From the NCBI GenBank assembly GCA_964457525.1, contig CAYWGS010000029.1, positions 1 to 15,722 on the forward strand: a stretch of 15,722 nt of DNA. Reading direction: 5' to 3'. The notes beneath the pieces were generated by a model. It did not search any database. It saw only the letters and a list, made by a program, of their open reading frames with translations, and had not been told where the DNA came from. Position 1 is the first letter of the stretch. Every line of letters starts with the position of its first letter. The stretch comes from an uncultured Erysipelotrichaceae bacterium (GTDB lineage Bacteria > Bacillota_I > Bacilli_A > Erysipelotrichales > Erysipelotrichaceae). This document shows positions 2 to 14,164 of this stretch, in pieces. The translations under genes and the position numbers were made by a program.

Positions 2-388
2 AACAAATCAGAATTAACAGGCAAGGTTATTATTGATATTACAAATCCAGTAAACTTTAGCACCATGGATGGCTTATTGGTCAGTGCAGACAGTTCCGCA
101 ACGGAAGAGTTTGTAAAGCTTGCGCCACAAGCATCATTTGTTAAAGTATTTAATACAAACTTTGCGTCTACTCTAGCAGGCGATAAAAATACAACAGTGT
201 TACTTGCGTCTGATGACAATATCGCAAAAGAAACACTTATCAACGCTTTACATGGTAGTCATTTAGATTTAGTAGATGTGGGATCACTTAAACGTGCTCG
301 TGAATTAGAAGCACTTGGTTTCTTACAAATTACACTAGCGATTCGTGAAAAGATTTCTTGGATGGGTGGATTTAGTTTAGTTAAATAA
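2..388 (+). CDS. 3' portion of an NAD(P)H-dependent oxidoreductase (F420-reductase/NpdG-like, PF03807-type); the 5' end lies outside the window
   Basis: The frame of ORF 65..388 stays open back to base 2 (NKSELTGKVIIDITNPVNFST precedes the listed Met). It has the IDxTNP motif and a C-terminal DVGSLKRARELE segment typical of this family. Stop TAA 386-388 is followed by a terminator hairpin. Confidence 0.65.
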   Translation, partial: NKSELTGKVIIDITNPVNFSTMDGLLVSADSSATEEFVKLAPQASFVKVFNTNFASTLAGDKNTTVLLASDDNIAKETLINALHGSHLDLVDVGSLKRARELEALGFLQITLAIREKISWMGGFSLVK

Positions 389-450: not shown

Positions 451-1617
451 CTAAAGAATAGGTTTGACTGGATAAATTGTCACTCCCGTTACGACTCGAT
501 TAACTTCTCCTGTAGGACACGGATTGTCTACCGTAATACCTAAGGAAAGTGATTTAAAGAATCCAATTAACTGTGCAATGACAATCATCTTCAATCCAAT
601 AAATTCACTTGGTATGTCGGTATAGTCATACTGAATGGCATAATCTACATTCGCATCATAAGGGGCGTTACTGATGGTTAGAATCTTATAGCCTTTCTGT
701 TGACTCTTTAGTTCATTGATTAAATCAAGTTCATATTTACGCGTTAATTCGTGATCACTTAAGTAAATAACAATTAACGTGTGGGCGTTTATGAATGATT
801 TAGGTCCATGTCTAAAGCCAGTCAAAGTATCATATAAAGTCGCAACTTTTCCTTGAGTAAGCTCTAGGATTTTCAATGCGCTTTCTTGAGCGAATGCTTT
901 CATGTTCTGTGAACCAAGATAAACAATTCTCTCAAAATTATACTCATTGATTAATGATTTAATTCTTGAAGCATTTTTAGTTAGATTGGATTGAACAGAG
1001 TGAGCACATTCATTTAAATACGTCTCATACTTATCCAATTCATTGATATTGAAACAAAGGAGTGTTGCGGTAATCATGTTGGTAAAACTTGAGGTCATCG
1101 CAAAACCTAAATCATTTGTTTCATCCGGAAGTTCAATCGCAAGTACACGATCATCCATATAGGCTAATTTCGCTAGAGCACCATTCTTATTACAGGTAAT
1201 AAATAAATGGTAAGCCTGTTCTGTATAGGCATTAACTGCTTGTACAGCACCAACGGATTCAGGTGAATTACCACTGCGTCCATATGAAATGAAAAGTGTT
1301 TTTCGTTTAGGGTTGATGTATAACTCAGGGCTTAGAATCATATCCGTCGTCGCAATACTTCTTGCCTTAAACTCATAGTTCTTATTGAAATAATTCACAA
1401 GTGTATTCCCAATGTATTCACTTGTTCCAGCACCCATGAAAATGATATCAAAGCTTCCTCTTCGACCCAATTCATTTAAGAAATCTTTGATTTTACTTTT
1501 ATTTGATTGAATGACGTCAAATGTCTTTAGCCATGTAGAGGGTTGTTGAAAGATTTCTTTACCGGTATTACAGGCATCGATTTCTTTGATATCTTCTTTT
1601 GTATTTAAATGCTTCAT
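451..1617 (-). CDS. agaS: AgaS-family double-SIS sugar-phosphate isomerase/deaminase (putative galactosamine-6-P or glucosamine-6-P deaminase-isomerase)
   Basis: 388 aa. Blocks colinear with E. coli AgaS as I recall it: EIxQQPxxW, GAGTSxxIG, ISYGRSGNSPESVGAV, YHLFITCNKNGALA, GFAMTSSFT, TGFRHGPKS, NRVVTGVTIYP. RBS GAAGGAAG sits upstream of the ATG. Confidence 0.85.
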   Translation of the reverse strand: MKHLNTKEDIKEIDACNTGKEIFQQPSTWLKTFDVIQSNKSKIKDFLNELGRRGSFDIIFMGAGTSEYIGNTLVNYFNKNYEFKARSIATTDMILSPELYINPKRKTLFISYGRSGNSPESVGAVQAVNAYTEQAYHLFITCNKNGALAKLAYMDDRVLAIELPDETNDLGFAMTSSFTNMITATLLCFNINELDKYETYLNECAHSVQSNLTKNASRIKSLINEYNFERIVYLGSQNMKAFAQESALKILELTQGKVATLYDTLTGFRHGPKSFINAHTLIVIYLSDHELTRKYELDLINELKSQQKGYKILTISNAPYDANVDYAIQYDYTDIPSEFIGLKMIVIAQLIGFFKSLSLGITVDNPCPTGEVNRVVTGVTIYPVKPIL

Positions 1618-1644
1618 ATGCTTCCTTCTGCTTTCTTACTATGT

Positions 1645-2706
1645 TTATTCTTCAAATTGCTTAATATCTAAATTCAATAATTGACAAGCATTACGATAGT
1701 AAATATCTTTTAATGCTTCATCGGGTAAACCAATTCCATAGATTCTCCATCGACCTTGTCCAGCTTGTTCACCTTCTTCTTGATACTCAAAGTATTCATC
1801 CCATGTTTCAAGAAATCTAAAATACTTTTTCTGTAGTTGAAGGTTTAAAGGTGTACAATCGGTACCATATAAAATACGGTTGGAATAGTTAATAAAGAAC
1901 GCTCTACTTGAATAGGGAACTCTTCCTAGTTCCGCAATTCGAGCCGCAATATCAATGTACATGTTTGGATAACGATCTAATCGTTCGGATACATGTTTAA
2001 GATTTTCTGCATACGAACCAAAGTGTGCCACAATAAACTTTGTTTGAGGGTGTTTCTCAATCATAGAATCTTGCATATCCATAAGTTCATTAAATGTCAT
2101 CTGTCCTTCTTTACCAAATGCCCAGTCTGGGTTTTCAATGAGTTCTTCGAATCGTTCATTGGTTTGATCGATTGGAAGGAAGAAGGCCACTGGATCTGCG
2201 ATATGAATCAGTACAGGAATATTGAGTTCTGCAGCTGTGTCATATACAACATCAAGTCTTGGATCATCGGTACGAATATAATTCCCTGATTGATCCTTTT
2301 GGTTTAAACTAATGACTTTCCACATCTTAATGCCACGTGCCCCTTTTGAGTATGCATCATGTAGATGTGTTTTAATGGTTGTTTGAAAATCTTCTTCATC
2401 AATTCTTGATACATCAATCCATACAAATAGACTTAATATATCATCCATACACTTTGTATGCTGAATCATCTCAATCATCTCATCTCCCCAAACACCATCG
2501 AGATTTACCACATGATGAATGTTTAAAGATTCAAGTTCTTTTCGATAATTGGATAGATTATAGGTTTGTTTGTAATCATTTCCTAACACAAGCTTCCCTA
2601 AGTGTTGATGGATATCAATCACTTTATATTTAGCTGTGTAGATTGGTGTTTCATTTGTCACACATTGTGATATCGGTTGATACTCACTTAACATTAAATC
2701 TTTCAT
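1645..2706 (-). CDS. Metal-dependent TIM-barrel amidohydrolase (Amidohydrolase_2 / PF04909-like), substrate unknown
   Basis: 353 aa. An N-terminal HxH (VIDIHQHLG) is followed by His residues in LIHIADP and VAHFG and an Asp in YGTDCTP, in the order expected for the amidohydrolase superfamily. The start overlaps the upstream permease stop as TAATG. Confidence 0.75.
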   Translation of the reverse strand: MKDLMLSEYQPISQCVTNETPIYTAKYKVIDIHQHLGKLVLGNDYKQTYNLSNYRKELESLNIHHVVNLDGVWGDEMIEMIQHTKCMDDILSLFVWIDVSRIDEEDFQTTIKTHLHDAYSKGARGIKMWKVISLNQKDQSGNYIRTDDPRLDVVYDTAAELNIPVLIHIADPVAFFLPIDQTNERFEELIENPDWAFGKEGQMTFNELMDMQDSMIEKHPQTKFIVAHFGSYAENLKHVSERLDRYPNMYIDIAARIAELGRVPYSSRAFFINYSNRILYGTDCTPLNLQLQKKYFRFLETWDEYFEYQEEGEQAGQGRWRIYGIGLPDEALKDIYYRNACQLLNLDIKQFEE

Positions 2707-3536
2707 TACTTCATACCTGTTGTCGCAATTCCCTTAATGAATTGTTTTTGGAACATTAAGAACACTATAATAACTGGCATCATAATCAAAGCAGAAGCTG
2801 CCATCGTTGCGGATAGGTCTGCTGTGTGTTGCGATGAGAAGTAGGATAATGCGAGTGGTAAGGTCATCTTCTTAATATCATTGATCATAATGAGTGGATT
2901 GAGATAATCATTCCAATAATTTAAGAAGGTAAAGATGGTTAATGCACCGACGGTCGGTTTTAAAAGAGGTAGGACTATTTTGAGATAAATACTCCAGTTA
3001 CTTGCACCTTCCATACGAGCTGCTTCGATTAATTCATTTGGTATATCATCACAGGCTTGTTTACTCAAGAATATTCCGAATGCATTCACAAACGATGGAA
3101 CGATTAATGCGCCTGCTGTATTGTATAAACCTAATGCATTAATGAGTAAGAATCCAGGAATCATTGTAGTATGCGTAGGAACCATCATAGTTGCGAGAAC
3201 AAGCATGAACAAGACTTTCTTGAATTTAAACTCAAACTTAGAGAATACAAACCCAACAATCGTACTACTCAATAAAATAACAACAGTATTCGTAACGGTT
3301 ATAAATAAACTGTTTCTAAACCAGTAGAAGAATGGAGACTTGGTTAGAACTTTAATATAACCGCTGATGGTAAAGTTAACTGGAATTAAATGTTTTGGAT
3401 CAACCAATAATTCTTTCGTACTCTTCAATGAGTTCGACAACATCCAGAAGAAAGGTAGAATCATGAAAAGGGATAATAGGAATAAACCAATAAAAATAGC
3501 GATATAAACTGGTTTTACTTTCATCTTCTTTTTCAT
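2706..3536 (-). CDS. Carbohydrate ABC transporter permease (CUT1, MalG/AmyC-like)
   Basis: 276 aa, multi-pass membrane protein. EAA loop: IEAARMEGASNWSIYLKIVLPLLKP. Confidence 0.9.
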   Translation of the reverse strand: MKKKMKVKPVYIAIFIGLFLLSLFMILPFFWMLSNSLKSTKELLVDPKHLIPVNFTISGYIKVLTKSPFFYWFRNSLFITVTNTVVILLSSTIVGFVFSKFEFKFKKVLFMLVLATMMVPTHTTMIPGFLLINALGLYNTAGALIVPSFVNAFGIFLSKQACDDIPNELIEAARMEGASNWSIYLKIVLPLLKPTVGALTIFTFLNYWNDYLNPLIMINDIKKMTLPLALSYFSSQHTADLSATMAASALIMMPVIIVFLMFQKQFIKGIATTGMK

Positions 3537-3537
3537 C

Positions 3538-4413
3538 TTAATAATCCCAATCGACTTTCTGAATTTTTTGTTGAATGATGGTAATAATAAATATGATTAC
3601 GAATAAGAGTACTGCAATCGCAGATGCATATCCCATATTCTTAATCTCAAATGCCATCTTATAGATATAACTTGTTAAGACTAAACCGGAGTTTTGAGGT
3701 CCTGATTTTAATACCATGACAGAGAATTGAGCAAACATTTGGAAATGGCTTATGAGTGTCATGATTGTTACAAACGTCATTGTTCTTCCTAATAGAGGAA
3801 GTGTAATATGTCTGAATTTGTGCCATGCGGATGCACCATCCATTTCAGCGGCTTCATAGAAATTAGTTGGAATGGAATCAATCCCTGCACTAAATAAAAT
3901 AATGTTATATCCGATATCGACCCAAATCGTAAATACGATGATGGACCACATTAAGATATTCGGATCCCCTAACCAGTTTACAGGATCGAATCCGATGGTT
4001 TTAAGCATCATATTAGCTAAGCCTGTTGCGGTTGGAAAAATACTTCTTGCCCAAACAACACTGGATGCGACAAGTGGCGCAACACAAGGTAGAAAGAAAG
4101 CCATTCTAAAGAAGCTTCTTATTTTGTTTGATTTAAACATACTAATAAATTGGGCAATCATAAGCGATAAAGTTATGTTAAGCGCTACTGTAATTCCAAC
4201 AAACATCAATGTGTTGAATAGTGCTTTGACAAGTACTTCATCTGCGAATAGTTCTTTAAAGTTCTTTAGTCCAACAAAGGTATTTGAATCTCTTAATGGA
4301 TTATAGTCCATCAATGAAATACCAAAACCTGCAATTATTGGGCCAACACTAAATAGGAACATGTGAATAAAAACAGGAACTAATACGAGTAAAATAAATT
4401 TTTTGTTTTTCAT
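3538..4413 (-). CDS. Carbohydrate ABC transporter permease (CUT1, MalF/AmyD-like)
   Basis: EAA loop: YEAAEMDGASAWHKFRHITLPLL. I place the start at MKNKKFILL (ATG complement 4411-4413) because AAGGAAG lies 8 nt upstream. The track start at 4464 would read through an intercistronic hairpin and has no RBS. Confidence 0.9.
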   Translation of the reverse strand: MKNKKFILLVLVPVFIHMFLFSVGPIIAGFGISLMDYNPLRDSNTFVGLKNFKELFADEVLVKALFNTLMFVGITVALNITLSLMIAQFISMFKSNKIRSFFRMAFFLPCVAPLVASSVVWARSIFPTATGLANMMLKTIGFDPVNWLGDPNILMWSIIVFTIWVDIGYNIILFSAGIDSIPTNFYEAAEMDGASAWHKFRHITLPLLGRTMTFVTIMTLISHFQMFAQFSVMVLKSGPQNSGLVLTSYIYKMAFEIKNMGYASAIAVLLFVIIFIITIIQQKIQKVDWDY

Positions 4414-4436
4414 TCTTCTAACTTCCTTATTTTGAG

Positions 4437-4470
4437 AAAAGGATGGATAGATGAAACTACCCATCCTTTT
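4437..4470 (-). promoter_or_regulatory. Intercistronic stem-loop between the binding-protein gene and the first permease gene
   Basis: Perfect 10-bp inverted repeat AAAAGGATGG (4437-4446) / CCATCCTTTT (4461-4470) with a 14-nt loop. It starts 6 nt after the SBP stop. On the minus-strand RNA there is only a weak U-run after the stem. Confidence 0.55.
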
Positions 4471-4476
4471 TATAAA

Positions 4477-5754
4477 CTACTTAACTACATTGGTATTTAA
4501 GTATTCTTCCAATGAAATCAAAGCTTCATCAACAGAAGGAGTTGTACCCATGACTAAATCGACAAATGTATTATTAACTGCTTCTTTAAATTGATCGGTA
4601 TTAAAGTATCCAATAAATTGTGCATTACCCAAGATTTTTACAAGTGGTTTTGCGAAAGGCATTAAGTTTAATAATTCAGGATCTTGTGCAACACTAATTT
4701 TTGCTGGAATTTGAGCTGCCGCAACATTATGAGCTAACAAGTTTTCATCTTGATAGAAGTATTCTAAGAATTTGTATGCTGCTTCTTGTTGTTTGGATGA
4801 TCCATTAACACTAAGTGCCCAACCTGTTTCAGCAGCGAATGCAGCTTTATCACCAAACCAAGGCATTTCAACATAGTCAAAGTCTACACCTAATGTTAAA
4901 CCGAAGCTGGATGTTCCTTCAGAAATAACCCATGGTCCACGTGGAACAAGCGCATTACGACCTGCGTATAGTTGTTGATAACCTTCTAAATCTCCACCAC
5001 CAACTAACCCTTCTAAGTCCGTTACTTTATCCACAACAACCATATCATAGAGTTCTTGTAGAGCCGCTTTAGCTTCTGGAGTTTGTAGGGTGAATTTGCC
5101 ATTCGCATCAAGATATTGGCCACCTGTGGATAAGATCATGGATAAGAACATATAAGGAACAGAATCCCAGTTCACAAAGTCAAAACCTTTTTGAGTTAAG
5201 ATTCCACCTTCTTCTTTAGTTAACTTAGTACCAGCACTTACAAGTTCAGCCCAAGTTGTTGGAACTGGAATGTTTGCGTCTTTTAATAAAGTCTTATTAA
5301 CCAATAAACCACCATTTTCAATGTTAAATTCAAGTGGTAATCCGTATAATTTACCATCATACATTAATGCACCAATCGTAGATGGATATACATGATCGAT
5401 CACATCTTTTGCCATAGCATCTGGCATAACTGCTAGTGCACCAGTGGATGCGAAGTCAACTCCCCATCCGCCCCACATTTCATAGATATCTGCACCACCT
5501 TCTTTAGAGATTAAAGAAGTTTGTACTTTCGATTCGAATTGATCGTATGGGAAGAATTCAAATGAAACTTCGATACCAGGATTCTCTGCTGTAAACTTTT
5601 CTCCTATTTGACGATAGGATTCATTCCAAGGCTCATTTTGGTGGCCCCAGAAAGTCAACTTAATGGTCTCAGAGTCGTTGGTATTACTACCAGAGCAGCC
5701 GACTAAAGACGAAAGCATAAGTAGACTCATCAGTAACAATGCTAATTTCTTCAT
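4477..5754 (-). CDS. Extracellular sugar-binding lipoprotein of a CUT1 ABC transporter
   Basis: 425 aa. Signal peptide with lipobox MKKLALLLMSLLMLSSLVGC. The Trp/Tyr-rich body is typical of family-1 sugar SBPs. RBS AAAGGA lies 7 nt upstream. Confidence 0.9.
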   Translation of the reverse strand: MKKLALLLMSLLMLSSLVGCSGSNTNDSETIKLTFWGHQNEPWNESYRQIGEKFTAENPGIEVSFEFFPYDQFESKVQTSLISKEGGADIYEMWGGWGVDFASTGALAVMPDAMAKDVIDHVYPSTIGALMYDGKLYGLPLEFNIENGGLLVNKTLLKDANIPVPTTWAELVSAGTKLTKEEGGILTQKGFDFVNWDSVPYMFLSMILSTGGQYLDANGKFTLQTPEAKAALQELYDMVVVDKVTDLEGLVGGGDLEGYQQLYAGRNALVPRGPWVISEGTSSFGLTLGVDFDYVEMPWFGDKAAFAAETGWALSVNGSSKQQEAAYKFLEYFYQDENLLAHNVAAAQIPAKISVAQDPELLNLMPFAKPLVKILGNAQFIGYFNTDQFKEAVNNTFVDLVMGTTPSVDEALISLEEYLNTNVVK

Positions 5755-5802
5755 TCATTTTTCCTTTCAACGCATGGATATGCGTAATTGCCTGGGTAAT
5801 AA

Positions 5803-7131
5803 TCAAATCTTTAAGGATTTGAAATAACTTAAGTACTCCGCATTCTTATCCAACATTTCTTGAACCATATCTTTGATTTCTTGCATACTGAGTACACTTG
5901 AAGTCAATGGATCAAATAAAATCGCGTGGAATACTTTTTCTGGATCACCTGTAATCGCTGCTTGAACTGCTAATTCTTCAATACGAGCAGAGTGATCCAC
6001 CATAAGTGCTAAATGTTCTGGTAATGTAACTGGCATGATGGAATGAATGCCTCTTTCAGTTGCGACAACAGGAACTTCAACACATGCATTTTCTCTTACA
6101 TTTGGAATATAACCTTTGTTTTGAAGGTTACCATTGAAGAAGAATGGAGTGTGGTCACCAAGGATTGCGTTAAAGATGTTCGATGCATATTCTTCGCCTC
6201 TTTCAAGTTCAATATCCCCATGTTCTAACCATTCTTTATATTCTTTTTCCCAAGTAGTTTCTCTGTCGAGATATTCATTTAGGATATAAGCATATTCGCC
6301 TGGATTCCAACCTGTCCCGAAGGTACAGTATTTTTCAATTAAGTCTGGACGTTTTCTGAACCATTGATTGTATTCAGAGTTATGTCCACTGGATTCTGTT
6401 GGGAAGTAACCCAAATGTCTGAACATTTCAATTCGAACGGGTTCTTCATTTGCGACTTCTTCTCTTAAGATCGCTTGTTTTAATAGAGGAATCGCATCTT
6501 CATCTTTCCATTTATATTCGGTATAGAAGGCTTGGTGATTAATACCCGCACATACATATTTAATATCTTTAATATCTGCACCAATCCATCCTGCTAACAT
6601 TTCAGCTGTACCTTGTACACTGTGGCAGAGTCCTGTCACATTAACGAACGTTTGTTTTTGTAAGAAACTAACTAACATCGCCATAGGGTTGGAGTAGTTA
6701 AGTACGATCGCATGTGGACATAGTTCTTCCACATCACGAATAATATCTAACATGACTGGAGCTGTTCTTAAGAATCTGAAGATTCCTGAAGGGCCTCTAG
6801 TATCCCCTACGTTTATATCAACACCATATTTCTTAGGAATTTCAATGTCGTGTCTCCACACTTCAACGCCACCTTGTAAAATCGTAATTACGACACCATC
6901 TGCACCGACTAAGGCTTCTCTACGATCCATTGTGTAGGTGACTTTTGCGTTATAATGTCCCTTTTCAATGATTTTCATGATGCCTTGGTAAGCATACGAT
7001 AATCTCTTCTCATTAATATCAACTAAACTAATTTCGCAGTCATTAAATTGATCAAACGTAAGAATATCTCTAACAAGACTACGTGTGAAATCCAATGATC
7101 CTGCACCAATGAACACAAACTTCTTTCCCAT
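5803..7131 (-). CDS. Glycoside hydrolase family 4 (NAD+/Mn2+-dependent), MelA-like alpha-glycosidase
   Basis: 442 aa. FIGAGS dinucleotide-binding turn, NYSNPMA, GLCHSVQG (Cys-His metal ligands) and CAGINHQ, colinear with MelA-type alpha-galactosidases. RBS AGAGG lies 6 nt upstream. Confidence 0.9.
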   Translation of the reverse strand: MGKKFVFIGAGSLDFTRSLVRDILTFDQFNDCEISLVDINEKRLSYAYQGIMKIIEKGHYNAKVTYTMDRREALVGADGVVITILQGGVEVWRHDIEIPKKYGVDINVGDTRGPSGIFRFLRTAPVMLDIIRDVEELCPHAIVLNYSNPMAMLVSFLQKQTFVNVTGLCHSVQGTAEMLAGWIGADIKDIKYVCAGINHQAFYTEYKWKDEDAIPLLKQAILREEVANEEPVRIEMFRHLGYFPTESSGHNSEYNQWFRKRPDLIEKYCTFGTGWNPGEYAYILNEYLDRETTWEKEYKEWLEHGDIELERGEEYASNIFNAILGDHTPFFFNGNLQNKGYIPNVRENACVEVPVVATERGIHSIMPVTLPEHLALMVDHSARIEELAVQAAITGDPEKVFHAILFDPLTSSVLSMQEIKDMVQEMLDKNAEYLSYFKSLKI

Positions 7132-7142
7132 TTTGAACCTCT

Positions 7143-7155
7143 TGTTTACTAAACA
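7143..7155. promoter_or_regulatory. Palindromic operator O1 (TGTTTA-C-TAAACA), probable LacI-family binding site next to the GH4 RBS
   Basis: Perfect 13-bp palindrome immediately upstream (in the gene sense) of the AGAGG RBS of the GH4 gene. The same palindrome recurs at 7262-7274. Confidence 0.6.
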
Positions 7156-7162
7156 GTTTATC

Positions 7163-7177
7163 TGTTTACGTGTTTAC
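7163..7177. promoter_or_regulatory. Tandem operator half-sites TGTTTAC-g-TGTTTAC
   Basis: Two direct copies of the O1 half-site, at 7163-7169 and 7171-7177. TAAACAG(7150-7156)-5nt-CTGTTTA(7162-7168) also forms an inverted repeat with O1. Confidence 0.45.
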
Positions 7178-7183
7178 ACTATC

Positions 7184-7212
7184 ATTGTAGTCTACATAAT
7201 TTTAGATGTAAA
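7184..7212 (-). promoter_or_regulatory. Candidate sigma-A promoter of the GH4-ABC-amidohydrolase-agaS operon
   Basis: On the minus strand: TTTACA (7212-7207), a 17-nt spacer, then TACAAT (7189-7184). The operator half-sites fall at about +1 to +35. An alternative pair exists: TTGAAA (7221-7216) / TATGTA (7198-7193). Confidence 0.4.
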
Positions 7213-7231
7213 GGCTTTCAAGACATTTTTA

Positions 7232-7260
7232 TTGATTATTTTAATAAAATCATCTATAAT
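7232..7260 (+). promoter_or_regulatory. Sigma-A promoter of the lacI-family regulator and kinase operon
   Basis: TTGATT (7232-7237), an exact 17-nt spacer, then TATAAT (7255-7260). Operator O2 begins directly after the -10. Confidence 0.6.
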
Positions 7261-7275
7261 TTGTTTAGTAAACAA
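7261..7275. promoter_or_regulatory. Palindromic operator O2 (TTGTTTA-G-TAAACAA)
   Basis: Perfect 15-bp palindrome containing the reverse complement of O1. It sits between the -10 and the AGAGG RBS of the regulator gene. Confidence 0.6.
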
Positions 7276-7288
7276 CTAGAGGTCACAT

Positions 7289-8290
7289 ATGGCAAATATT
7301 AGAGATGTTGCTAAGAAGGCTGGAACTTCGATTACGACCGTTTCCAGAGTCTTATCAAATGATGAAAGTTTTAAGGTTCCTGACAGTACAAAAGAAAACA
7401 TCTTTAGAGCGGTTAAAGAACTTAATTATGTTGTTCCAAAGAAAGTAAAATCAGAGAAACAATATCGCATTGGTTGTATTATGGCGATGACTGCAGTTAA
7501 GTATTCTGACCCATACTTTATGACCATGGCTTCTGCGATTGAGACGGAAGCAAAAAAGCTTAATTGTAATCTATCTTATCTAATCAATTATGATGAATTA
7601 GAGAAACCATCAAAACTCGTAGAACTTCATGAGATGAAGTTAGATGGACTTATTATTACGGAAATGTTGCCGAAACATATCGTAGAAGATCTTAAGCAAC
7701 ATGTTAAGCACATTATTACGATTGATAATTATCAGAACATGTTTAATTCGGTTGGTTTTGATCACTTTGATTCCACCAAGAAAATCATGAAACATTTACT
7801 CAATAGTGGATATAAACGTATTGCTTATATTGGTGGTGGTGCACCGAATATTGATATGTTTGATACGAAACGTTTAATTATGTATCGTGAATGCCTTCGT
7901 AGAGAAAACATTGAATATGATGAAACGATTATTAAAGATTGTTACTGGGATTTAGAACAATGTGCAATTCAAACGAATGAACTTCTTCAATTACCAAATC
8001 GTCCAGACGCAATCTTTGCAGGGAGTGATTCTCTTGCTCAAGTTGTTATTGCACAAATCTATCAAAATAACTTAAGATGTCCTGAAGATGTAGCAGTGGT
8101 TGGATTCAATAATCTTAATTTCTCATCTTACTTGATTCCTCCACTTACAACAGTGGATGTACCAAGTGATGAAATTGGACGAGTAGCGGTTAAACGTTTA
8201 TTGGAAATGATTCAAAAAAATGATCAAAGTATCTATGGTATATTCTTACCCACAAAACTCATTGTACGTGGTTCAACGAAAGGGATTTAG
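7289..8290 (+). CDS. LacI/GalR-family transcriptional regulator
   Basis: 333 aa. N-terminal HTH NIRDVAKKAGTSITTVSRVLSN, followed by a periplasmic-binding-protein-like sugar-binding core. Confidence 0.9.
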   Translation: MANIRDVAKKAGTSITTVSRVLSNDESFKVPDSTKENIFRAVKELNYVVPKKVKSEKQYRIGCIMAMTAVKYSDPYFMTMASAIETEAKKLNCNLSYLINYDELEKPSKLVELHEMKLDGLIITEMLPKHIVEDLKQHVKHIITIDNYQNMFNSVGFDHFDSTKKIMKHLLNSGYKRIAYIGGGAPNIDMFDTKRLIMYRECLRRENIEYDETIIKDCYWDLEQCAIQTNELLQLPNRPDAIFAGSDSLAQVVIAQIYQNNLRCPEDVAVVGFNNLNFSSYLIPPLTTVDVPSDEIGRVAVKRLLEMIQKNDQSIYGIFLPTKLIVRGSTKGI

Positions 8291-8291
8291 T

Positions 8292-9251
8292 ATGAAATGT
8301 TATCTTGGTATTGATAGTGGTGGCACTAAAACAAAGTTTCTATTAGTGGATGAGAATGGTCATAAATTAGCTGAAAGTAATCAAAGTGCGAGTCATTATT
8401 TACAAGTTGGTTATGATGGATTAAAAAGTGTTTTGCAAGCTGGACTTCAAGATTGTTTAAATCAATCTGCTTGTACAAAAGAATCCATTCATCATATCTT
8501 CGCATCTGTTGCGGGTTATGGTGATATTGAAGATGATAGTGAACATATCATCCAAGCCGTTAATGAAGTCTTTTATCCCATTCAAACAACAATCGGTAAT
8601 GATGTAGAGAATGCCTACGCAGGTGGACTTGTGGATAAAACAGGTATTGTTCTCATCGCAGGTACTGGTTCAATTGGTCTTGGCCTTGATAACGATGGTA
8701 ATAGCCTAAGATGTGGTGGTTGGCATCATATTTTTGGTGGAGATGAAGGCAGTGGATACTGGATTGGTTGTAAACTCATTCAAGAATTTACCATGCAAAG
8801 TGATGGGCGTTCTAACAAAACACAGTTATATTCACACATCAAAACGAAGTTTAATTTTGTGAATGATTCAGATATTCTTAAGCTTACCGTTGTAGATTGG
8901 GATTTCGATCGTACTAAAGTCGCGGCACTTTCGAGAGAAGTCAGTGTACTAGCGCATCAAAATGATCCTGCTTCACTTAGAATCTTAAATGAAGCTGCTG
9001 TTGAACTGAGTCGCATTATTATCGCAATTAAAAACCAACTTAACTTTAGTTCTACTGTTTTAGCTTCTTATCAAGGTGGTGTGTTTAAGAGTGGTGATCC
9101 TGTTCTAATTCCTCTTAAAGAAATATTGATTAAGCATAATATTGAACTAATCCCACCTTTCTCAAGTCCTGATATTGGTAGTGTTATCTTAGCGTTTAAG
9201 TATGCTCATACCCCTCTTACTGAAACTATCCTTCGTAATTTAAAAGCATAA
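8292..9251 (+). CDS. BadF/BadG/BcrA/BcrD-type ATPase, N-acetylhexosamine/hexosamine kinase-like
   Basis: Start set at MKCYLGIDSGGTKTK (ATG 8292; RBS AAAGGGA; 1 nt after the regulator stop). Motifs GIDSGGTKT, AGTGS and GGWHHIFGGDEGSGYWIG. The track start at 8220 lies inside the regulator gene. Confidence 0.85.
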   Translation: MKCYLGIDSGGTKTKFLLVDENGHKLAESNQSASHYLQVGYDGLKSVLQAGLQDCLNQSACTKESIHHIFASVAGYGDIEDDSEHIIQAVNEVFYPIQTTIGNDVENAYAGGLVDKTGIVLIAGTGSIGLGLDNDGNSLRCGGWHHIFGGDEGSGYWIGCKLIQEFTMQSDGRSNKTQLYSHIKTKFNFVNDSDILKLTVVDWDFDRTKVAALSREVSVLAHQNDPASLRILNEAAVELSRIIIAIKNQLNFSSTVLASYQGGVFKSGDPVLIPLKEILIKHNIELIPPFSSPDIGSVILAFKYAHTPLTETILRNLKA

Positions 9252-10550: not shown

Positions 10551-11147
10551 ATGATAAAATCAACTGCTATTCTTCTTGAAGAATTAAAGAATTATCAAAA
10601 TCCAATGGTTAAAATTTCTTTAATGGTTAAGAAAAGAGAGCTTTTCCCTATTACAAGAGGTTTATATGAAACTGACCCTTCTATTCCTGGTTACTACTTA
10701 GCTTCTGTCATTTATGGGCCTTCATATTTATCGTTTGAGTATGCTCTCGCTTTTCACGGATTAATTCCTGAAGCAGTTTATCAGTTTACATGTGCAACAT
10801 TTAATAAAAGACGTAGAAAAAAATATAATAATCATTTTGGTTATTATTCGTATAGAGATGTTCCTAATTTAGCTTTCCCTATTGCGACAGTCTTATATCA
10901 AGAGAATGGATATAGCTTTGTGATTGCAAGGCCAGAAAAAGCAATTTGTGATTTACTATACACATATGAACCTTGTAATAATCAAAAAGAACTAAGATCT
11001 TTGCTTTTTGATTTTATCAGAATTGATGAAGATTCTTTCTTTGAATTAGATTTAAAACTAATAATGGAAATTGCTCAATATTATCATATAAAGAATTGTA
11101 AGTTACTTATCCGTATTTTAGAAAAGGAGATTATAAAGCGTGGATAA
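10551..11147 (+). CDS. abiEi: AbiEi-family type IV antitoxin / transcriptional autoregulator
   Basis: 198 aa. LFPITRGLYE and GPSYLSFEYALAFHGLIPE (the N-terminal winged-helix region typical of AbiEi), plus ARPEKAICDLLY. It overlaps the downstream nucleotidyltransferase gene by 8 nt. Confidence 0.8.
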   Translation: MIKSTAILLEELKNYQNPMVKISLMVKKRELFPITRGLYETDPSIPGYYLASVIYGPSYLSFEYALAFHGLIPEAVYQFTCATFNKRRRKKYNNHFGYYSYRDVPNLAFPIATVLYQENGYSFVIARPEKAICDLLYTYEPCNNQKELRSLLFDFIRIDEDSFFELDLKLIMEIAQYYHIKNCKLLIRILEKEIIKRG

Positions 11148-12000
11148 CCTAATACAACAAATGATAAATGAGTATCAAATACAAAACGATCAAGATAGAA
11201 GAAATGCATTAAAAGAAGTCATTCAAGAAATTGTTTTATGTGGTTTATCTAGGGTTGGATTCTTTAGCGAAGCTGCTTTTTATGGTGGAACTGCATTAAG
11301 AATTTTCTACGGTTTAGATCGATTCTCAGAAGATTTAGATTTCTCTTTAGTTCAAGTTAACACTAAATTTAATTTTGAAAAATATATACCTGGATTAGCT
11401 AATGAGTTAAGTTCATATGGATTGAACTTAGAAATCAGTATTAAAGATAAAGCTATCGATTCTACAATTAAATCCGCATTTGTTAAAGGGAATACAAAAG
11501 AGTTAATATTGAAATTCTTTGAAAATGAATCTTTGACGAACAAGATAGGTAAGAATGAACTCGTAAAAATTAAATTCGAAGTAGATATTTATCCGCCTCA
11601 ATATGCACAAGTTGAGCATAAGTATAAACAGTTACCGATACCCTATGAGGTTGTACTTTATGATTTACCTTCTTTGTTTGCTGGTAAAACACATGCGGTA
11701 TTATGTCGCTCTTGGAAGAGTAGAGTTAAAGGACGTGATTTATATGACTTCACTTTTTATGTATCAAAGAAAGTACCAATCAATTTGAAGCACTTAAATG
11801 CGAGGTTAATTGATTCTGGATTCATTAGTGAAGGTGAAGAACTTACACTTGACGAACTTAAATTAAAACTAAAAGCTCGATTTAATGAAATTGACTATTC
11901 GCTTGCTAAAGAGGATGTTATAAACTTCTTAAAGTATCCTTCTAAGATAGATATTTGGAGTGAGGAGTATTTCTGTAGTTTAGTAGATGAATTAATATAG
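11140..12000 (+). CDS. abiEii: AbiEii/AbiGii-family nucleotidyltransferase toxin (DUF1814)
   Basis: 286 aa. GTG start with AAGGAG 10 nt upstream. Pol-beta-type NTase signature YGGTALRIFYGLDRFSEDLDFSL and the family C-terminal block GKTHAVLCRSWKSRVKGRDLYDF. Confidence 0.85.
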   Translation: MDNLIQQMINEYQIQNDQDRRNALKEVIQEIVLCGLSRVGFFSEAAFYGGTALRIFYGLDRFSEDLDFSLVQVNTKFNFEKYIPGLANELSSYGLNLEISIKDKAIDSTIKSAFVKGNTKELILKFFENESLTNKIGKNELVKIKFEVDIYPPQYAQVEHKYKQLPIPYEVVLYDLPSLFAGKTHAVLCRSWKSRVKGRDLYDFTFYVSKKVPINLKHLNARLIDSGFISEGEELTLDELKLKLKARFNEIDYSLAKEDVINFLKYPSKIDIWSEEYFCSLVDELI

Positions 12001-12014
12001 TTCATATCATATCT

Positions 12015-12043
12015 AAAAGGTCCCATTTAAATTGGGGCCTTTT
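12015..12043. terminator. Bidirectional intrinsic terminator between abiEii and the histidine kinase gene
   Basis: AAAAGGTCCCA-tttaaat-TGGGGCCTTTT: an 11-bp stem with one G-U pair and A/T tracts on both sides. It overlaps the kinase stop codon (12042-12044). Confidence 0.8.
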
Positions 12044-13472
12044 ATACTAACTTAATTGTAAATGTGATTTCTGTACCCTTATTCTCTTCACTCATAACAT
12101 GTAGATCAATATGATGATTATTCGCTATTCTTGAGACGATAAGTAAGCCTAAACCATTCCCATTTGGATTGTTTTGACTTTCTTTCTTATAGCGTTGGAA
12201 GAGTTCTTTTTGTTTAAGTTCACTCATTCCAACTCCTTCATCTCTAATGGATATGCTTACTGTGTTATCAACTTTTTTCGCACTCAAATGAATTGAACTC
12301 TGCACATCTGAGAACTTAGATGCATTTTCAATAACAGCTAGGAACATTTGTTTTAAACGTTGATGATCCCCAACGATATTCCACATTCCTTCTTCAATAT
12401 CACTTACAAGTTCTTGTTTCTTCGATTTTAGAATCGCTTGAGCACTTCGACTTACATCACTTAGTACTTCATGGAGTTCACAATTACGCATATCGAGTTT
12501 AAAATCTGGATCTTCAAGTTTGGATAAGTCTAATAGATCTTGAATCAATCGCTGCATGCCCACTGTTTCATGGATGATTTGTTGGCTTATCACTGGACTA
12601 TCATTGATATCATAGACTTTATCTTTTATCCCTTCCGCAAGTCCACGAATAACCGTTACCGGTGTTCTTAATTCATGTGTGATATCCGCAATGAAGTTTT
12701 GTCTCATCTTCTCTAGGTTTTCACTTTGTCGTGAGGCATCGTCTAGTCGTTTGGCTAAGCTATTAATGTTCTTAGATAAGAGTCCAAATTCGTCTTTTCT
12801 GGATTCATCGATTTCAATATTATATTGTCCTGATGCGAGTGTATTAATAGCCGCGTTGGCTTTCATTAACGGTTTGATAAAGTTCATGGATAAGAGATAC
12901 CCTAATACAATCGCGATGAAGATCCCAATAATAAGCGCAACCATCATTGTTCGTATACTTGCGGTACTTAAGGCGTCAATCGAAGATAAGGACGCCGAAA
13001 TAAATAGTGCCCCAACAATTTGATTATTGATTTGGATTGGTGTTCCAACTGTAACATTCTCTTCTTGGAATACACCTTTAATACGATCACTGATGAGTTG
13101 TTCACCCTTGAGTACTTGAGATAGTAATTCTTGTGTCCCTTTACTTAGATTGTGATAGTTTCGCATCATCCCCATTCCCATACGGGTTTCAGTAATGGTA
13201 TTGATATCTCCATTTTGGCTTACAATCCAAACTTGTAAATCCTTAACATCGATACTTGAAAGGTAGTATTGTACAACACTCTCTTCAATATCAAAGGTTC
13301 GATTCTCCGCTATTACATTCGCGATTAAAGTGGATTGACTGAGTAAACTGACCTCAATGGATTCTCTGGTTTGTTTACGTACGTTGAACCCAAAAACAAT
13401 CCCGATGATCGCAAAGGATAAAATAACCAAGATAAAATAAAGTATTAGTTTTCGAGTAATCCCTTGACTCAT
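12042..13472 (-). CDS. Membrane sensor histidine kinase (two TM segments, extracytoplasmic loop, HAMP, HisKA, HATPase_c)
   Basis: 476 aa. TM segments ILYFILVILSFAIIGIVFGF and MMVALIIGIFIAIVLGYLL. H-box ADITHELRTPVT, N-box ENASKFS, G-boxes RDEGVGM and GNGLGL. Confidence 0.9.
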   Translation of the reverse strand: MSQGITRKLILYFILVILSFAIIGIVFGFNVRKQTRESIEVSLLSQSTLIANVIAENRTFDIEESVVQYYLSSIDVKDLQVWIVSQNGDINTITETRMGMGMMRNYHNLSKGTQELLSQVLKGEQLISDRIKGVFQEENVTVGTPIQINNQIVGALFISASLSSIDALSTASIRTMMVALIIGIFIAIVLGYLLSMNFIKPLMKANAAINTLASGQYNIEIDESRKDEFGLLSKNINSLAKRLDDASRQSENLEKMRQNFIADITHELRTPVTVIRGLAEGIKDKVYDINDSPVISQQIIHETVGMQRLIQDLLDLSKLEDPDFKLDMRNCELHEVLSDVSRSAQAILKSKKQELVSDIEEGMWNIVGDHQRLKQMFLAVIENASKFSDVQSSIHLSAKKVDNTVSISIRDEGVGMSELKQKELFQRYKKESQNNPNGNGLGLLIVSRIANNHHIDLHVMSEENKGTEITFTIKLV

Positions 13473-14164
13473 ACTTTATCCTCTGTGATCTCAAATTTAT
13501 ATCCAACACCCCATACAGTCTTTAAGTCCCAATGTGGATGTTTAACTAAGTCTAATTTACTTCTTAAACGTGTCATATGGGAATCAACCGTACGACTATC
13601 TCCATAATAGTCATATCCCCATACTTGATTTAAGAGTTGATCTCTAGAATACGCAACACTTGGATGACTTGCTAGTGTAAAGAGTAGTTCGATTTCTTTA
13701 CGTGTGAGTGATACTTCTTCTTGATCGATTAGTACACGATAGGCTCTCATATCAATCGATAGATTATGGATCGTTAATAGATGTTTCGTACTACCTGGAT
13801 CTAAGCGTCTGAGTACAGCTTTAATTCGAGCCATGACTTCAAGTGGAGAAAATGGTTTTACCACGTAATCATCTGCCCCGATATCAAGTCCCATAATCTT
13901 CTCATAGTCTTCACCACGAGCCGTAATCATGATAATTGGCACATTGTTTTCACGTCGTATTTCTTTACACACTGAAAACCCATCGAGTTTCGGCATCATC
14001 ACATCAAGTAGTACCAAATCGATATCACTATTCAATTTATTAAGCGTATCAAAACCATCTACTGCCACGACAGTTTCATAGCCTTCCTTCTTACAATAAC
14101 TAACTAGAATCGATGTTATTTGTGGGTTATCATCCGCTATTAAGATCGTTGTTTTATCTTTCAT
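13469..14164 (-). CDS. OmpR/PhoB-family response regulator
   Basis: 231 aa. Receiver domain (ILIADDN, LLDVMMP, VVKPF) plus a C-terminal winged-helix domain (LTRKEIELL ... VWGVGYKF). There is a 4-nt overlap with the kinase gene. Confidence 0.92.
   Translation of the reverse strand: MKDKTTILIADDNPQITSILVSYCKKEGYETVVAVDGFDTLNKLNSDIDLVLLDVMMPKLDGFSVCKEIRRENNVPIIMITARGEDYEKIMGLDIGADDYVVKPFSPLEVMARIKAVLRRLDPGSTKHLLTIHNLSIDMRAYRVLIDQEEVSLTRKEIELLFTLASHPSVAYSRDQLLNQVWGYDYYGDSRTVDSHMTRLRSKLDLVKHPHWDLKTVWGVGYKFEITEDKV

Follow-up and report, generated by a model that had tools for sequence, protein, structure and literature searches.

A GH4 glycosidase and ABC transporter locus with amino-sugar enzymes in an Erysipelotrichaceae bacterium, a candidate phosphotransferase-independent route for alpha-linked amino-sugar glycosides

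The stretch of contig CAYWGS010000029.1 analyzed here, from an uncultured Erysipelotrichaceae bacterium and referred to throughout at its full length of 15.7 kb as the window, contains an eight-gene locus that joins an ATP-binding cassette (ABC) sugar transporter and a glycosidase of glycoside hydrolase family 4 (GH4) to enzymes related to amino-sugar catabolism. Its open reading frames (ORFs) were listed and the window proteins scanned with Pfam and NCBIfam models. All eight genes named in an earlier reading of the bare sequence, which proposed a pathway for alpha-linked amino-sugar glycosides (the original prediction), are present with the positions and domains it gave them, apart from two start codons discussed below.

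Six of the genes are tightly packed on the minus strand, with intergenic gaps of -1, 1, 12-63, 27, and 48 nt. The first encodes a GH4 glycosidase of the NAD+/Mn2+ type (5803-7131; PF02056 and PF11975), of the MelA-like branch but in a separate clade and predicted to be an alpha-galactosaminidase. It is followed by a lipoprotein solute-binding protein (SBP_bac_1) of a CUT1-type sugar ABC transporter (4477-5754; PF01547/PF13416; lipobox LVGC) and two permeases with the PF00528 (BPD_transp_1) domain, one MalF/UgpA-like (3538-4413, in an ORF that extends to 4464) and one MalG/UgpE-like (2706-3536; NCBIfam GlcU/UgpE/MalG-like). Next are an amidohydrolase of an uncharacterized clade of PF04909 (Amidohydro_2; 1645-2706), hereafter AH2, a predicted sugar de-N-acetylase, and, as the last operon gene, an AgaS-family double-SIS enzyme (451-1617; TIGR02815), a predicted galactosamine-6-phosphate deaminase/isomerase. 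A hairpin between A and T runs (395-426), likely a bidirectional terminator, closes the operon downstream of the SIS gene. Divergent from the operon, the plus strand carries a LacI-family repressor gene (7289-8290; PF00356, PF13377, and PF00532) and the gene of a BadF/BcrAD-type (ASKHA) sugar kinase (8292-9251; PF01869), a predicted hexosamine 6-kinase. No ABC ATPase gene is present in the window; in some relatives it lies within the gene set.

The earlier coordinates stand overall, with the kinase start more likely at 8292 than at 8220 and the start of the upstream permease at 4413 according to gene callers, which report the 291-aa form in L001-L006 (loci are cited here by their L numbers). 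The longer kinase ORF from 8220 overlaps lacI; the ATG at 8292 is the one supported by homologs, has GAAAGGGA in front of it, and lies one base past the lacI stop codon. This spacing supports the co-transcription of lacI and the kinase gene that had been proposed, and the kinase gene is predicted to be translationally coupled to lacI.

An alignment of 24 AH2 homologs was scanned against one genome per species, which gave 80 loci, and all eight window proteins were then searched against these. About 20 of the 80 share the arrangement LacI / GH4-SBP-permease-permease-(ATPase)-AH2 plus the kinase (SBP, solute-binding protein; the slash separates gene groups), hereafter the cassette. Its carriers are Erysipelotrichaceae, which include the closest genomes among the AH2-seeded loci, Breznakia pachnodae, B. 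blatticola, Anaerorhabdus, Clostridiaceae OM02-2AC, and several Lachnospiraceae, as well as Candidatus Mediterraneibacter surreyensis and [Ruminococcus] (Mediterraneibacter) torques ATCC 27756. Among cultured strains the carriers are M. torques ATCC 27756, B. pachnodae DSM 16784, B. blatticola DSM 28867, and Erysipelothrix sp. HDW6C. A homolog search with the GH4 returned only sequences of the cassette clade. A reciprocal search began with four GH4 orthologs of 72-78% identity and their contigs (L090-L093); all four encode LacI, the kinase, GH4, the SBP, and both permeases, and three encode AH2. The four orders are LacI / GH4-SBP-2 permeases-AH2-kinase (L090), NagA / kinase-LacI / GH4-SBP-2 permeases-ATPase-AH2 (L091), kinase-LacI / GH4-SBP-2 permeases-AgaS-KbaZ-like, which is the one without AH2 (L092), and AH2-kinase-LacI / GH4-SBP-2 permeases (L093). 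The arrangement is not a product of chance, as many independent genomes have the genes in this order. A 1.1-kb gene between permease and AH2 in several relatives, considered as a possible new enzyme, proved to encode an MsmK-type ABC ATPase.

The kinase gene, found in 18 AH2-seeded loci and in all four GH4-seeded ones, adjoins lacI in Erysipelotrichaceae-like loci and lies directly 3' of AH2 in the Lachnospiraceae; since its position differs by lineage, it has evidently stayed with the cassette through rearrangement. The original prediction made its case depend on the amidohydrolase, SIS, and kinase genes being conserved together with the GH4/ABC genes. For the kinase and AH2 this is borne out by the searches from either side; for the AgaS-type SIS gene it is not, that gene being confined to L007, L009, and L092. 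The AH2 and kinase sequences of M. torques each occur on at least 1000 contigs, which indicates that the cassette is common in gut metagenomes. In the draft genome of [Ruminococcus] torques ATCC 27756 (L026, ~4865-4900), a homopolymer right after the GH4 start codon has one A fewer than in the metagenomic M. torques copy (L090/P0234), so that the ATG frame meets a stop; the cause is a strain-specific frameshift or else an error of sequencing.

Both copies of the 13-bp palindrome TGTTTA(C/G)TAAACA that occur in the 15.7 kb fall in the divergent intergenic region, which is 157 bp long. Candidate LacI operator O1 (TGTTTACTAAACA, 7143-7155) is found immediately upstream of the GH4 ribosome-binding site, and candidate operator O2 (TGTTTAGTAAACA, 7262-7274) between the predicted lacI -10 element (7255-7260) and the lacI ribosome-binding site. 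Of the 16 cassette loci examined, 15 have the palindrome, across three bacterial families, and it is kept in the cassette loci of Erysipelotrichaceae, Breznakia, and Lachnospiraceae. Both positions are occupied in nine loci (L007, L009, L012, L013, L014, L015, L016, L018, and L028) and one position in the others (L010, L023, L025, L026, L027, and L034), four of which show a one-base variant at the second site. The LacI orthologs in cassette loci are 40-83% identical. A palindrome placed in this way is what one would expect of a LacI divergon under autoregulation, and it argues that the kinase and the six-gene operon answer to one signal. The conserved operator thus offers a direct handle for finding the inducer. 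A cre-like palindrome (TGTAAAGGCTTTCA, 7207-7220) overlaps the -35 element of the predicted minus-strand operon promoter, and TG(T/A)AAGCCTTTACA-like elements recur in the corresponding spacer between the divergent genes of L007, L010, L012, L013, L014, L016, and L034, suggesting catabolite repression of the CcpA type.

The window glycosidase matches both GH4 domains far above their cut-offs (PF02056, 158.6 bits; PF11975, 164.9 bits) and has the NAD+ motif GAGS at residues 9-12. Its Cys169 (GLCHS) and His199 (GINHQ) align with the matching Cys and His of AglA (1obb), LplD (3fef), and 1s6y, so the predicted metal-binding pair is in place. Among NCBIfam models the protein matches best that of the alpha-galactosidase subfamily (NF011657), on which it scores 470.2 bits against a cut-off of 486 and thus stays outside the subfamily; an AglA-like model yields 137 bits. 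Identity to Escherichia coli MelA is 36%, and other AH2-adjacent GH4 proteins reach 49%. Judged by these scores, the enzyme belongs to the MelA-like (galacto) branch as a clade apart from true MelA. The mucin-induced GH4 of Hoskinsella was considered as a member of the same clade and ruled out, as it falls in the 6-phospho-alpha-glucosidase branch.

In L037, L039, and L040, a GH4 protein 49% identical to E. coli MelA has an AH2 homolog immediately 3' and a GH127-like protein in the cluster; a DUF4832 protein is encoded in the clusters of L037 and L040, and none was called in L039. These pairs indicate that the GH4-AH2 pairing reaches beyond clusters marked by amino-sugar genes. The extracellular GH127-like, DUF4832, and GH43 proteins near distant AH2 clusters gave no pointer to an amino-sugar polymer.

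The melibiose/raffinose operon of Bacillus subtilis has the order msmR-msmE-amyD-amyC-melA. Like it, the window combines a LacI regulator, a CUT1 SBP lipoprotein, two permeases, and a cytoplasmic GH4 of the MelA branch, and has no ATPase gene. Unlike it, the window has GH4 as the first gene and lacI divergent, its GH4 forms a separate clade, and the five parts in common are joined by a BadF kinase, an amidohydrolase of PF04909, and AgaS, so that the composition is not that of the msm/mel operon. The locus could nevertheless be an ordinary operon of this type, with GH4 as a plain alpha-galactosidase, the kinase acting on released glucose or fructose, and AH2 and the SIS protein as passengers. 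The composition of the msm/mel operon, the 470-bit match to the alpha-galactosidase subfamily as best NCBIfam model, and public annotations, which read alpha-galactosidase, all favor this alternative. We consider it distinctly unlikely, because the kinase and AH2 remain linked to the cassette from one family to another and despite rearrangement, AgaS, GatZ, or NagA joined it independently several times, one operator is common to both transcription units, and the GH4 shares no more than 36% identity with E. coli MelA while other AH2-linked GH4 proteins are up to 49% identical.

AH2 belongs to PF04909 (76.3 bits against a gathering score of 26.4) and matches no NCBIfam model, which leaves it outside the NagA/AgaA families (TIGR00221, PF01979); any deacetylase role would therefore be analogous rather than homologous at the level of the family. 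Six residues (H33, H35, K127, H168, H228, and D283) are invariant in 75 homologs. In an AlphaFold2 model (mean confidence, pLDDT, 92.6) the protein is a TIM barrel with these residues at the ends of predicted strands 1, 4, 5, 6, and 8, a pattern of HxH, carboxylated Lys, His, His, and Asp that we take to be the binuclear hydrolase arrangement of the amidohydrolase superfamily. No solved relative was found in the PDB with phmmer, and a profile of 24 homologs gave nothing significant there. The clade is large, with 2720 homolog clusters, and its commonest enzyme neighbor is GH4, in 34 of 75 loci. From this context AH2, which most loci of the cassette include, is a core component and a probable de-N-acetylase. 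The route first proposed for the locus gave AH2 no step, even though it is the most faithful partner of GH4.

A census of neighbors in 75 loci seeded from AH2 counted, besides the 34 with GH4, ABC permeases in 36, the BadF kinase in 18, GlmD/AgaS-like SIS proteins in 16, AgaZ/GatZ in 10 (a representative scores 571 bits against a cut-off of 569), PfkB kinases in nine, and class II ketose-bisphosphate aldolases in five. With GH4 and the transporter set aside, what remains is the set of components of the aga pathway, which leads from N-acetylgalactosamine (GalNAc) and galactosamine (GalN) to tagatose-6-phosphate.

Two kinds of AH2 cluster stand apart from the cassette. In L048, L066, and L073 (and L084), AH2 paralogs of 46-49% identity lie in the order FGGY kinase, class II ketose-bisphosphate aldolase, AH2, isomerase; the putative isomerase (460 aa) has no Pfam match and a weak similarity to the sulfoquinovose isomerase SftI. 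This cluster is an uncharacterized pathway of its own. In L042, L060, and L068 (also L052, L053, L062, and L072), from metagenome-assembled genomes that are Oscillospiraceae-like, a compact operon of AH2, a GlmD-like SIS protein, and PfkB lies directly downstream of histidine biosynthesis genes and includes neither transporter nor glycosidase; it looks like a minimal amino-sugar module.

The SIS protein of the window aligns with TIGR02815 (agaS_fam) over model positions 2-371 of 372, scoring 387.8 bits, which does not reach the curated cut-off of 529.2; AgaS is still its best family by a wide margin (388 bits against 83 for GlmD). Its identity to E. coli AgaS is 38% over 373 aa (272 bits), among solved structures it is closest to the AgaS-type entries 3odp, 3i0z, and 3c3j (E. 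coli), with E-values from 5e-91 to 2e-77, and it has the motifs GAGTS (62), GRSGNSPE (113), ESALKILE (245), and RHGPKS (269). E. coli FrlB gave no BLAST match to it. The original assignment to the AgaS type, as opposed to the fructosamine deglycases, is thereby upheld, and an FrlB identity of the protein is ruled out. A fructosamine (Amadori-product) pathway, with the SIS protein as an FrlB/GfrF-type deglycase, would draw on the double-SIS architecture and on PfkB kinases near AH2 paralogs that match the fructoselysine 6-kinase model weakly (97 bits). It is very improbable: besides the similarity to AgaS and the missing match to FrlB, the kinase is BadF-type and not PfkB, and such a pathway has no role for GH4.

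Other partners of the cassette point to the same chemistry. In L092, AgaS (47% identical to the window SIS protein and 40% to E. coli AgaS) occupies the usual slot of AH2 and is followed by a KbaZ-like gene whose product is 48% identical to E. coli KbaZ. In L018, a 344-aa GlmD/AgaS-like SIS protein and then an AgaZ/GatZ-family protein are encoded directly 3' of the kinase. NagA is encoded beside the cassette in L091 (305 bits on TIGR00221, cut-off 226) and L013, and L054 has a GntR-NagA-GH4-AH2 operon in which NagA scores 327 bits on the same model. Amino-sugar or tagatose genes have joined the cassette independently at least four times, as AgaS, as AgaS with KbaZ/GatZ, as a GlmD-like SIS protein with GatZ, and as NagA. 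AgaS is thus accessory to the cassette and returns in more than one form, and the AgaS-KbaZ, GlmD-like SIS-GatZ, and NagA partners tie the cassette to GalN-6-phosphate and tagatose-6-phosphate chemistry. The window itself has no genes for tagatose-6-phosphate enzymes; relatives carry KbaZ/GatZ, PfkB, and class II aldolase genes in cis.

The aga/gam regulon of E. coli (AgaR, a phosphotransferase system (PTS), AgaA, AgaS, and KbaY/KbaZ) resembles the locus in its AgaS homolog (38%) and, among relatives, in KbaZ-like (48%) and NagA/AgaA-family genes. The window differs in having ABC import and an ATP-dependent kinase in place of the PTS, and a LacI-type in place of a DeoR-type regulator. AgaA, KbaY, and KbaZ are absent, AgaS being the only member of the regulon with a homolog in the window, and the built-in glycosidase implies a glycoside rather than a free monosaccharide as substrate.

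The kinase belongs to the BadF/BcrAD family (PF01869, 119.4 bits against 31.5), with GIDSGGTKT, a DxGGT phosphate loop, near the N-terminus. Its nearest solved relatives are a kinase of N-acetylmuramic acid (MurNAc) and N-acetylglucosamine (GlcNAc) (8zo3), human NAGK (2ch5/2ch6), and a broad-specificity hexokinase of Sulfolobus (2e2n); on the equivalog model of the GlcNAc kinase NagK (NF046058) it scores 92 bits, below the cut-off of 370. The lipoprotein signal of the SBP ends in LVG before the Cys, and its best solved relative is only the acarbose/maltose-binding protein GacH (E-value 5e-28). ABC systems of the CUT1 type usually import di- or oligosaccharides.

A gluco-configured sugar has to be weighed here, that is, an alpha-glycoside of glucosamine (GlcN) or GlcNAc (for example from alpha-GlcNAc-capped glycans, or from fragments of thiol cofactors or the cell wall) with the AgaS-like enzyme as a GlcN-6-phosphate deaminase. 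The GlcNAc/MurNAc kinases among the relatives of the kinase, the public annotation of the M. torques ortholog as an N-acetylglucosamine kinase, the NagA neighbors, GlmD-like SIS proteins in distant clusters, and the genes for MurQ and MupG, which lie on this contig some 4 kb past the SIS gene, are consistent with it. Set against these are the AgaS-family score of the SIS protein (388 bits, 83 for GlmD), the KbaZ/GatZ partners, which indicate tagatose-6-phosphate, and the MelA-like rather than AglA-like GH4 (470 against 137 bits), and we regard this alternative as quite improbable. On the evidence as a whole, the most economical reading is a galacto-configured amino sugar freed from an alpha-glycoside, and the sugar is probably of the galactosamine type. 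The MurQ-like (SIS_2/GKRP) and MupG (6-phospho-N-acetylmuramidase) genes, at 20352-21329 of L001, indicate that this chromosomal neighborhood is generally devoted to the recycling of amino sugars and cell-wall sugars.

Taking these lines together, we think it probable that an alpha-linked amino-sugar glycoside is what the locus handles, whichever order the enzymes act in and whichever configuration the sugar has. Tentatively, we go further and propose a LacI-controlled, non-PTS system for a small alpha-glycoside with a non-reducing GalN or GalNAc, which is deacetylated first. The SBP and two permeases would import the unphosphorylated glycoside, with an ATPase encoded elsewhere; AH2 would strip the N-acetyl group from the still unphosphorylated sugar; GH4 would cleave the resulting alpha-galactosaminide by NAD+/Mn2+-dependent oxidation and elimination; the BadF-type kinase would phosphorylate the freed hexosamine at C6; and the AgaS-type enzyme would deaminate and isomerize GalN-6-phosphate to tagatose-6-phosphate, for which further enzymes would be encoded elsewhere in the genome. 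Gene content, domains, intact predicted catalytic motifs, the conserved cassette and operator, and the repeated association with AgaS, GatZ, and NagA are observed, and from them the identity of the sugar, the specificity of every enzyme, and the order of the second to fourth steps are deduced. In its workings such a locus resembles msm/mel in the half for import and glycosidase action and, in the downstream half, a kinase-based, non-PTS aga pathway. The original prediction is supported in part, by the AgaS-type SIS protein, the separate GH4 clade, the co-conservation of kinase and AH2, and the amino-sugar and tagatose partners of other cassette copies, and revised in that AgaS is not a general component and AH2 receives a step.

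Deacetylation before cleavage is favored by several observations. No pairing is more conserved than GH4-AH2; some loci have a true NagA besides AH2, so that a second 6-phosphate deacetylase would be redundant there; and L092, which does without AH2, keeps GH4, the kinase, and AgaS. In addition, the sole documented amino-sugar GH4, E. coli ChbF, needs prior de-N-acetylation, as ChbG must deacetylate chitobiose-6-phosphate before ChbF can cleave it (PMC12791066, citing Walter 2021). The chb operon is like the logic proposed for AH2 and GH4, in that a GH4 cuts the glycoside of a 2-amino sugar after the action of a dedicated de-N-acetylase. It is unlike it in that its substrate is beta-linked, 6-phosphorylated, and imported by a PTS, ChbG is of the YdjC family and not PF04909, and ChbF is in the 6-phospho-beta-glucosidase branch of GH4.

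The steps could instead follow the order of the aga pathway, with GH4 cleaving an alpha-GalNAc (or alpha-GlcNAc) glycoside directly, the kinase producing the N-acetylhexosamine-6-phosphate, AH2 deacetylating this 6-phosphate, and AgaS following. We think this order, and with it a role of AH2 as a non-orthologous replacement of AgaA/NagA, rather unlikely. It is true that in operons free of GH4 (AH2-SIS-PfkB in L042, L060, and L068; GntR-SIS-GatZ-PfkB-AH2 in L038) AH2 fills the slot of AgaA, that the AH2 and kinase genes overlap by 4 nt in the Lachnospiraceae, and that the nearest solved relatives of the kinase are N-acetylhexosamine/MurNAc kinases. However, a genuine NagA accompanies AH2, within one operon in L054 and as an adjacent gene in L091 and L013, which would make a second deacetylase redundant; the one documented amino-sugar-cleaving GH4 requires a free amine on the -1 sugar (PMC12791066); and the tightest conserved pair is GH4-AH2, not kinase-AH2.

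A number of observations weigh against the deacetylate-first route for a galactosaminide. The functions of all cassette enzymes are predictions from sequence and context. AgaS is absent from most cassette copies, occurring in the window lineage (3' of AH2 in L007 and L009) and in L092, and the window has no tagatose-6-phosphate kinase or aldolase, just as the original prediction stated. The public annotations of the GH4 orthologs are all alpha-galactosidase, and the protein falls just 16 bits below the cut-off of that subfamily. With respect to AH2, we know of no PF04909 member that acts as a sugar N-deacetylase, and a Foldseek search with the model returned generic amidohydrolase barrels at a TM-score of ~0.5 (LigI-like, TatD, uronate isomerase, and dihydropyrimidinase), not NagA. 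Its paralogs in the FGGY kinase clusters carry no amino-sugar signature, and the GH4-free AH2-SIS-PfkB operons fit a deacetylase acting on monosaccharides at least as well as one acting on glycosides. Lastly, in the proteomes of R. torques grown on porcine gastric mucin, GH4 RUMTOR_02460 was detected and RUMTOR_02756 was not (PMC12834350). RUMTOR_02460 is five locus tags from a GH2, and the cassette contig L026 has no GH2, so that by elimination the cassette GH4 is probably RUMTOR_02756; its non-detection gives gastric mucin no support as inducer and argues weakly against it.

Two other systems treat GalNAc in partly similar ways. Shewanella reportedly uses a non-PTS GalNAc pathway of AgaP, AgaK, AgaAII, and AgaS (Leyn et al. 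2012, summarized in PMC12118421). In it, a permease and a cytoplasmic kinase likewise replace the PTS, ahead of a deacetylase and AgaS; unlike the route proposed here, it takes up the monosaccharide, via the permease and a TonB-dependent outer-membrane transporter, and includes neither a glycosidase nor a PF04909 enzyme. In the gut bacterium Flavonifractor plautii, the deacetylase FpGalNAcDeAc and the GH36 galactosaminidase FpGalNase act on the blood-group A antigen (PMC11762096), which offers a second precedent for deacetylation ahead of cleavage. This pair likewise removes alpha-GalNAc in two steps in gut Clostridia, by deacetylation to alpha-GalN and then the action of an alpha-galactosaminidase. 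It differs in that the families are unrelated and the substrate is the A antigen at the cell surface, whereas the GH4 and AH2 sequences of the window have no signal peptide and their products would act after ABC import. The GalNAc cluster of Erysipelotrichaceae linked to pig ABO was considered as the same system and ruled out, as it is PTS-based.

A search of the available full-text literature found no paper on the cassette, on the proposed route, or on a GH4 acting on GalN or GalNAc. A 2025 review of amino-sugar use in the gut assigns the release of alpha-GalNAc to GH27, GH36, GH109, GH101, and GH129, not GH4, and amino-sugar import only to PTS or permease/kinase systems (PMC12118421). Comparative genomic surveys anchored on agaS make no mention of the cassette (PMC5583593; bioRxiv 10.1101/2020.07.16.206219). 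It is conceivable, although we would not yet count on it, that the cassette encodes the first GH4 alpha-galactosaminidase (or alpha-N-acetylgalactosaminidase) and the first sugar-de-N-acetylating PF04909 enzyme, in a widespread cytoplasmic pathway of gut Firmicutes. If so, this would be an NAD-dependent, cytoplasmic, ABC-fed route for alpha-linked galactosamine with a new GH4 activity, and would give a first function to a large PF04909 clade that has no structurally characterized relative. The cassette is found in common gut bacteria, including the prevalent human species Mediterraneibacter torques, and the alpha-galactosidase label may misassign the foraging of host, fungal, or bacterial glycans to the use of dietary raffinose or melibiose. 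Candidate substrates may include GalNAc-alpha-Ser/Thr, fragments of the Tn or A antigen, GalNAc-alpha-1,3-GalNAc, and other imported alpha-GalN(Ac) oligosaccharides or glyco-amino acids. Fungal galactosaminogalactan and alpha-1,4-GalN/GalNAc oligomers may also serve, among the latter oligomers of poly-alpha-1,4-galactosamine such as those set free by endo-alpha-1,4-galactosaminidases of GH114 and GH191 (PMC12054363).

The genes flanking the sugar locus are unrelated to it: one encodes a methyltransferase, another an AbiEii toxin preceded by a small ORF, and others a two-component system; the window contig recurs in several metagenomes. The AbiEii nucleotidyltransferase toxin gene (PF08843, 11140-12000, plus strand) overlaps an upstream 198-aa ORF that has no Pfam match, and the two (10551-12000) are probably an AbiEi/AbiEii type IV toxin-antitoxin pair, situated between the sugar locus and the two-component system. 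The latter (12042-14164, minus strand), a histidine kinase (HAMP-HisKA-HATPase) with an OmpR-type response regulator, is present on all sister contigs and has no evident link to the sugar locus. On the other side, just past the SIS gene, a 107-aa ORF (65-388, plus strand) to which no function is assigned is present in the window, L003, and L005, and the equivalent position in L001, L002, and L004 is occupied by genes for a 186-aa protein (faint F420_oxidored match) and an HxlR-type regulator, a case of strain variation.

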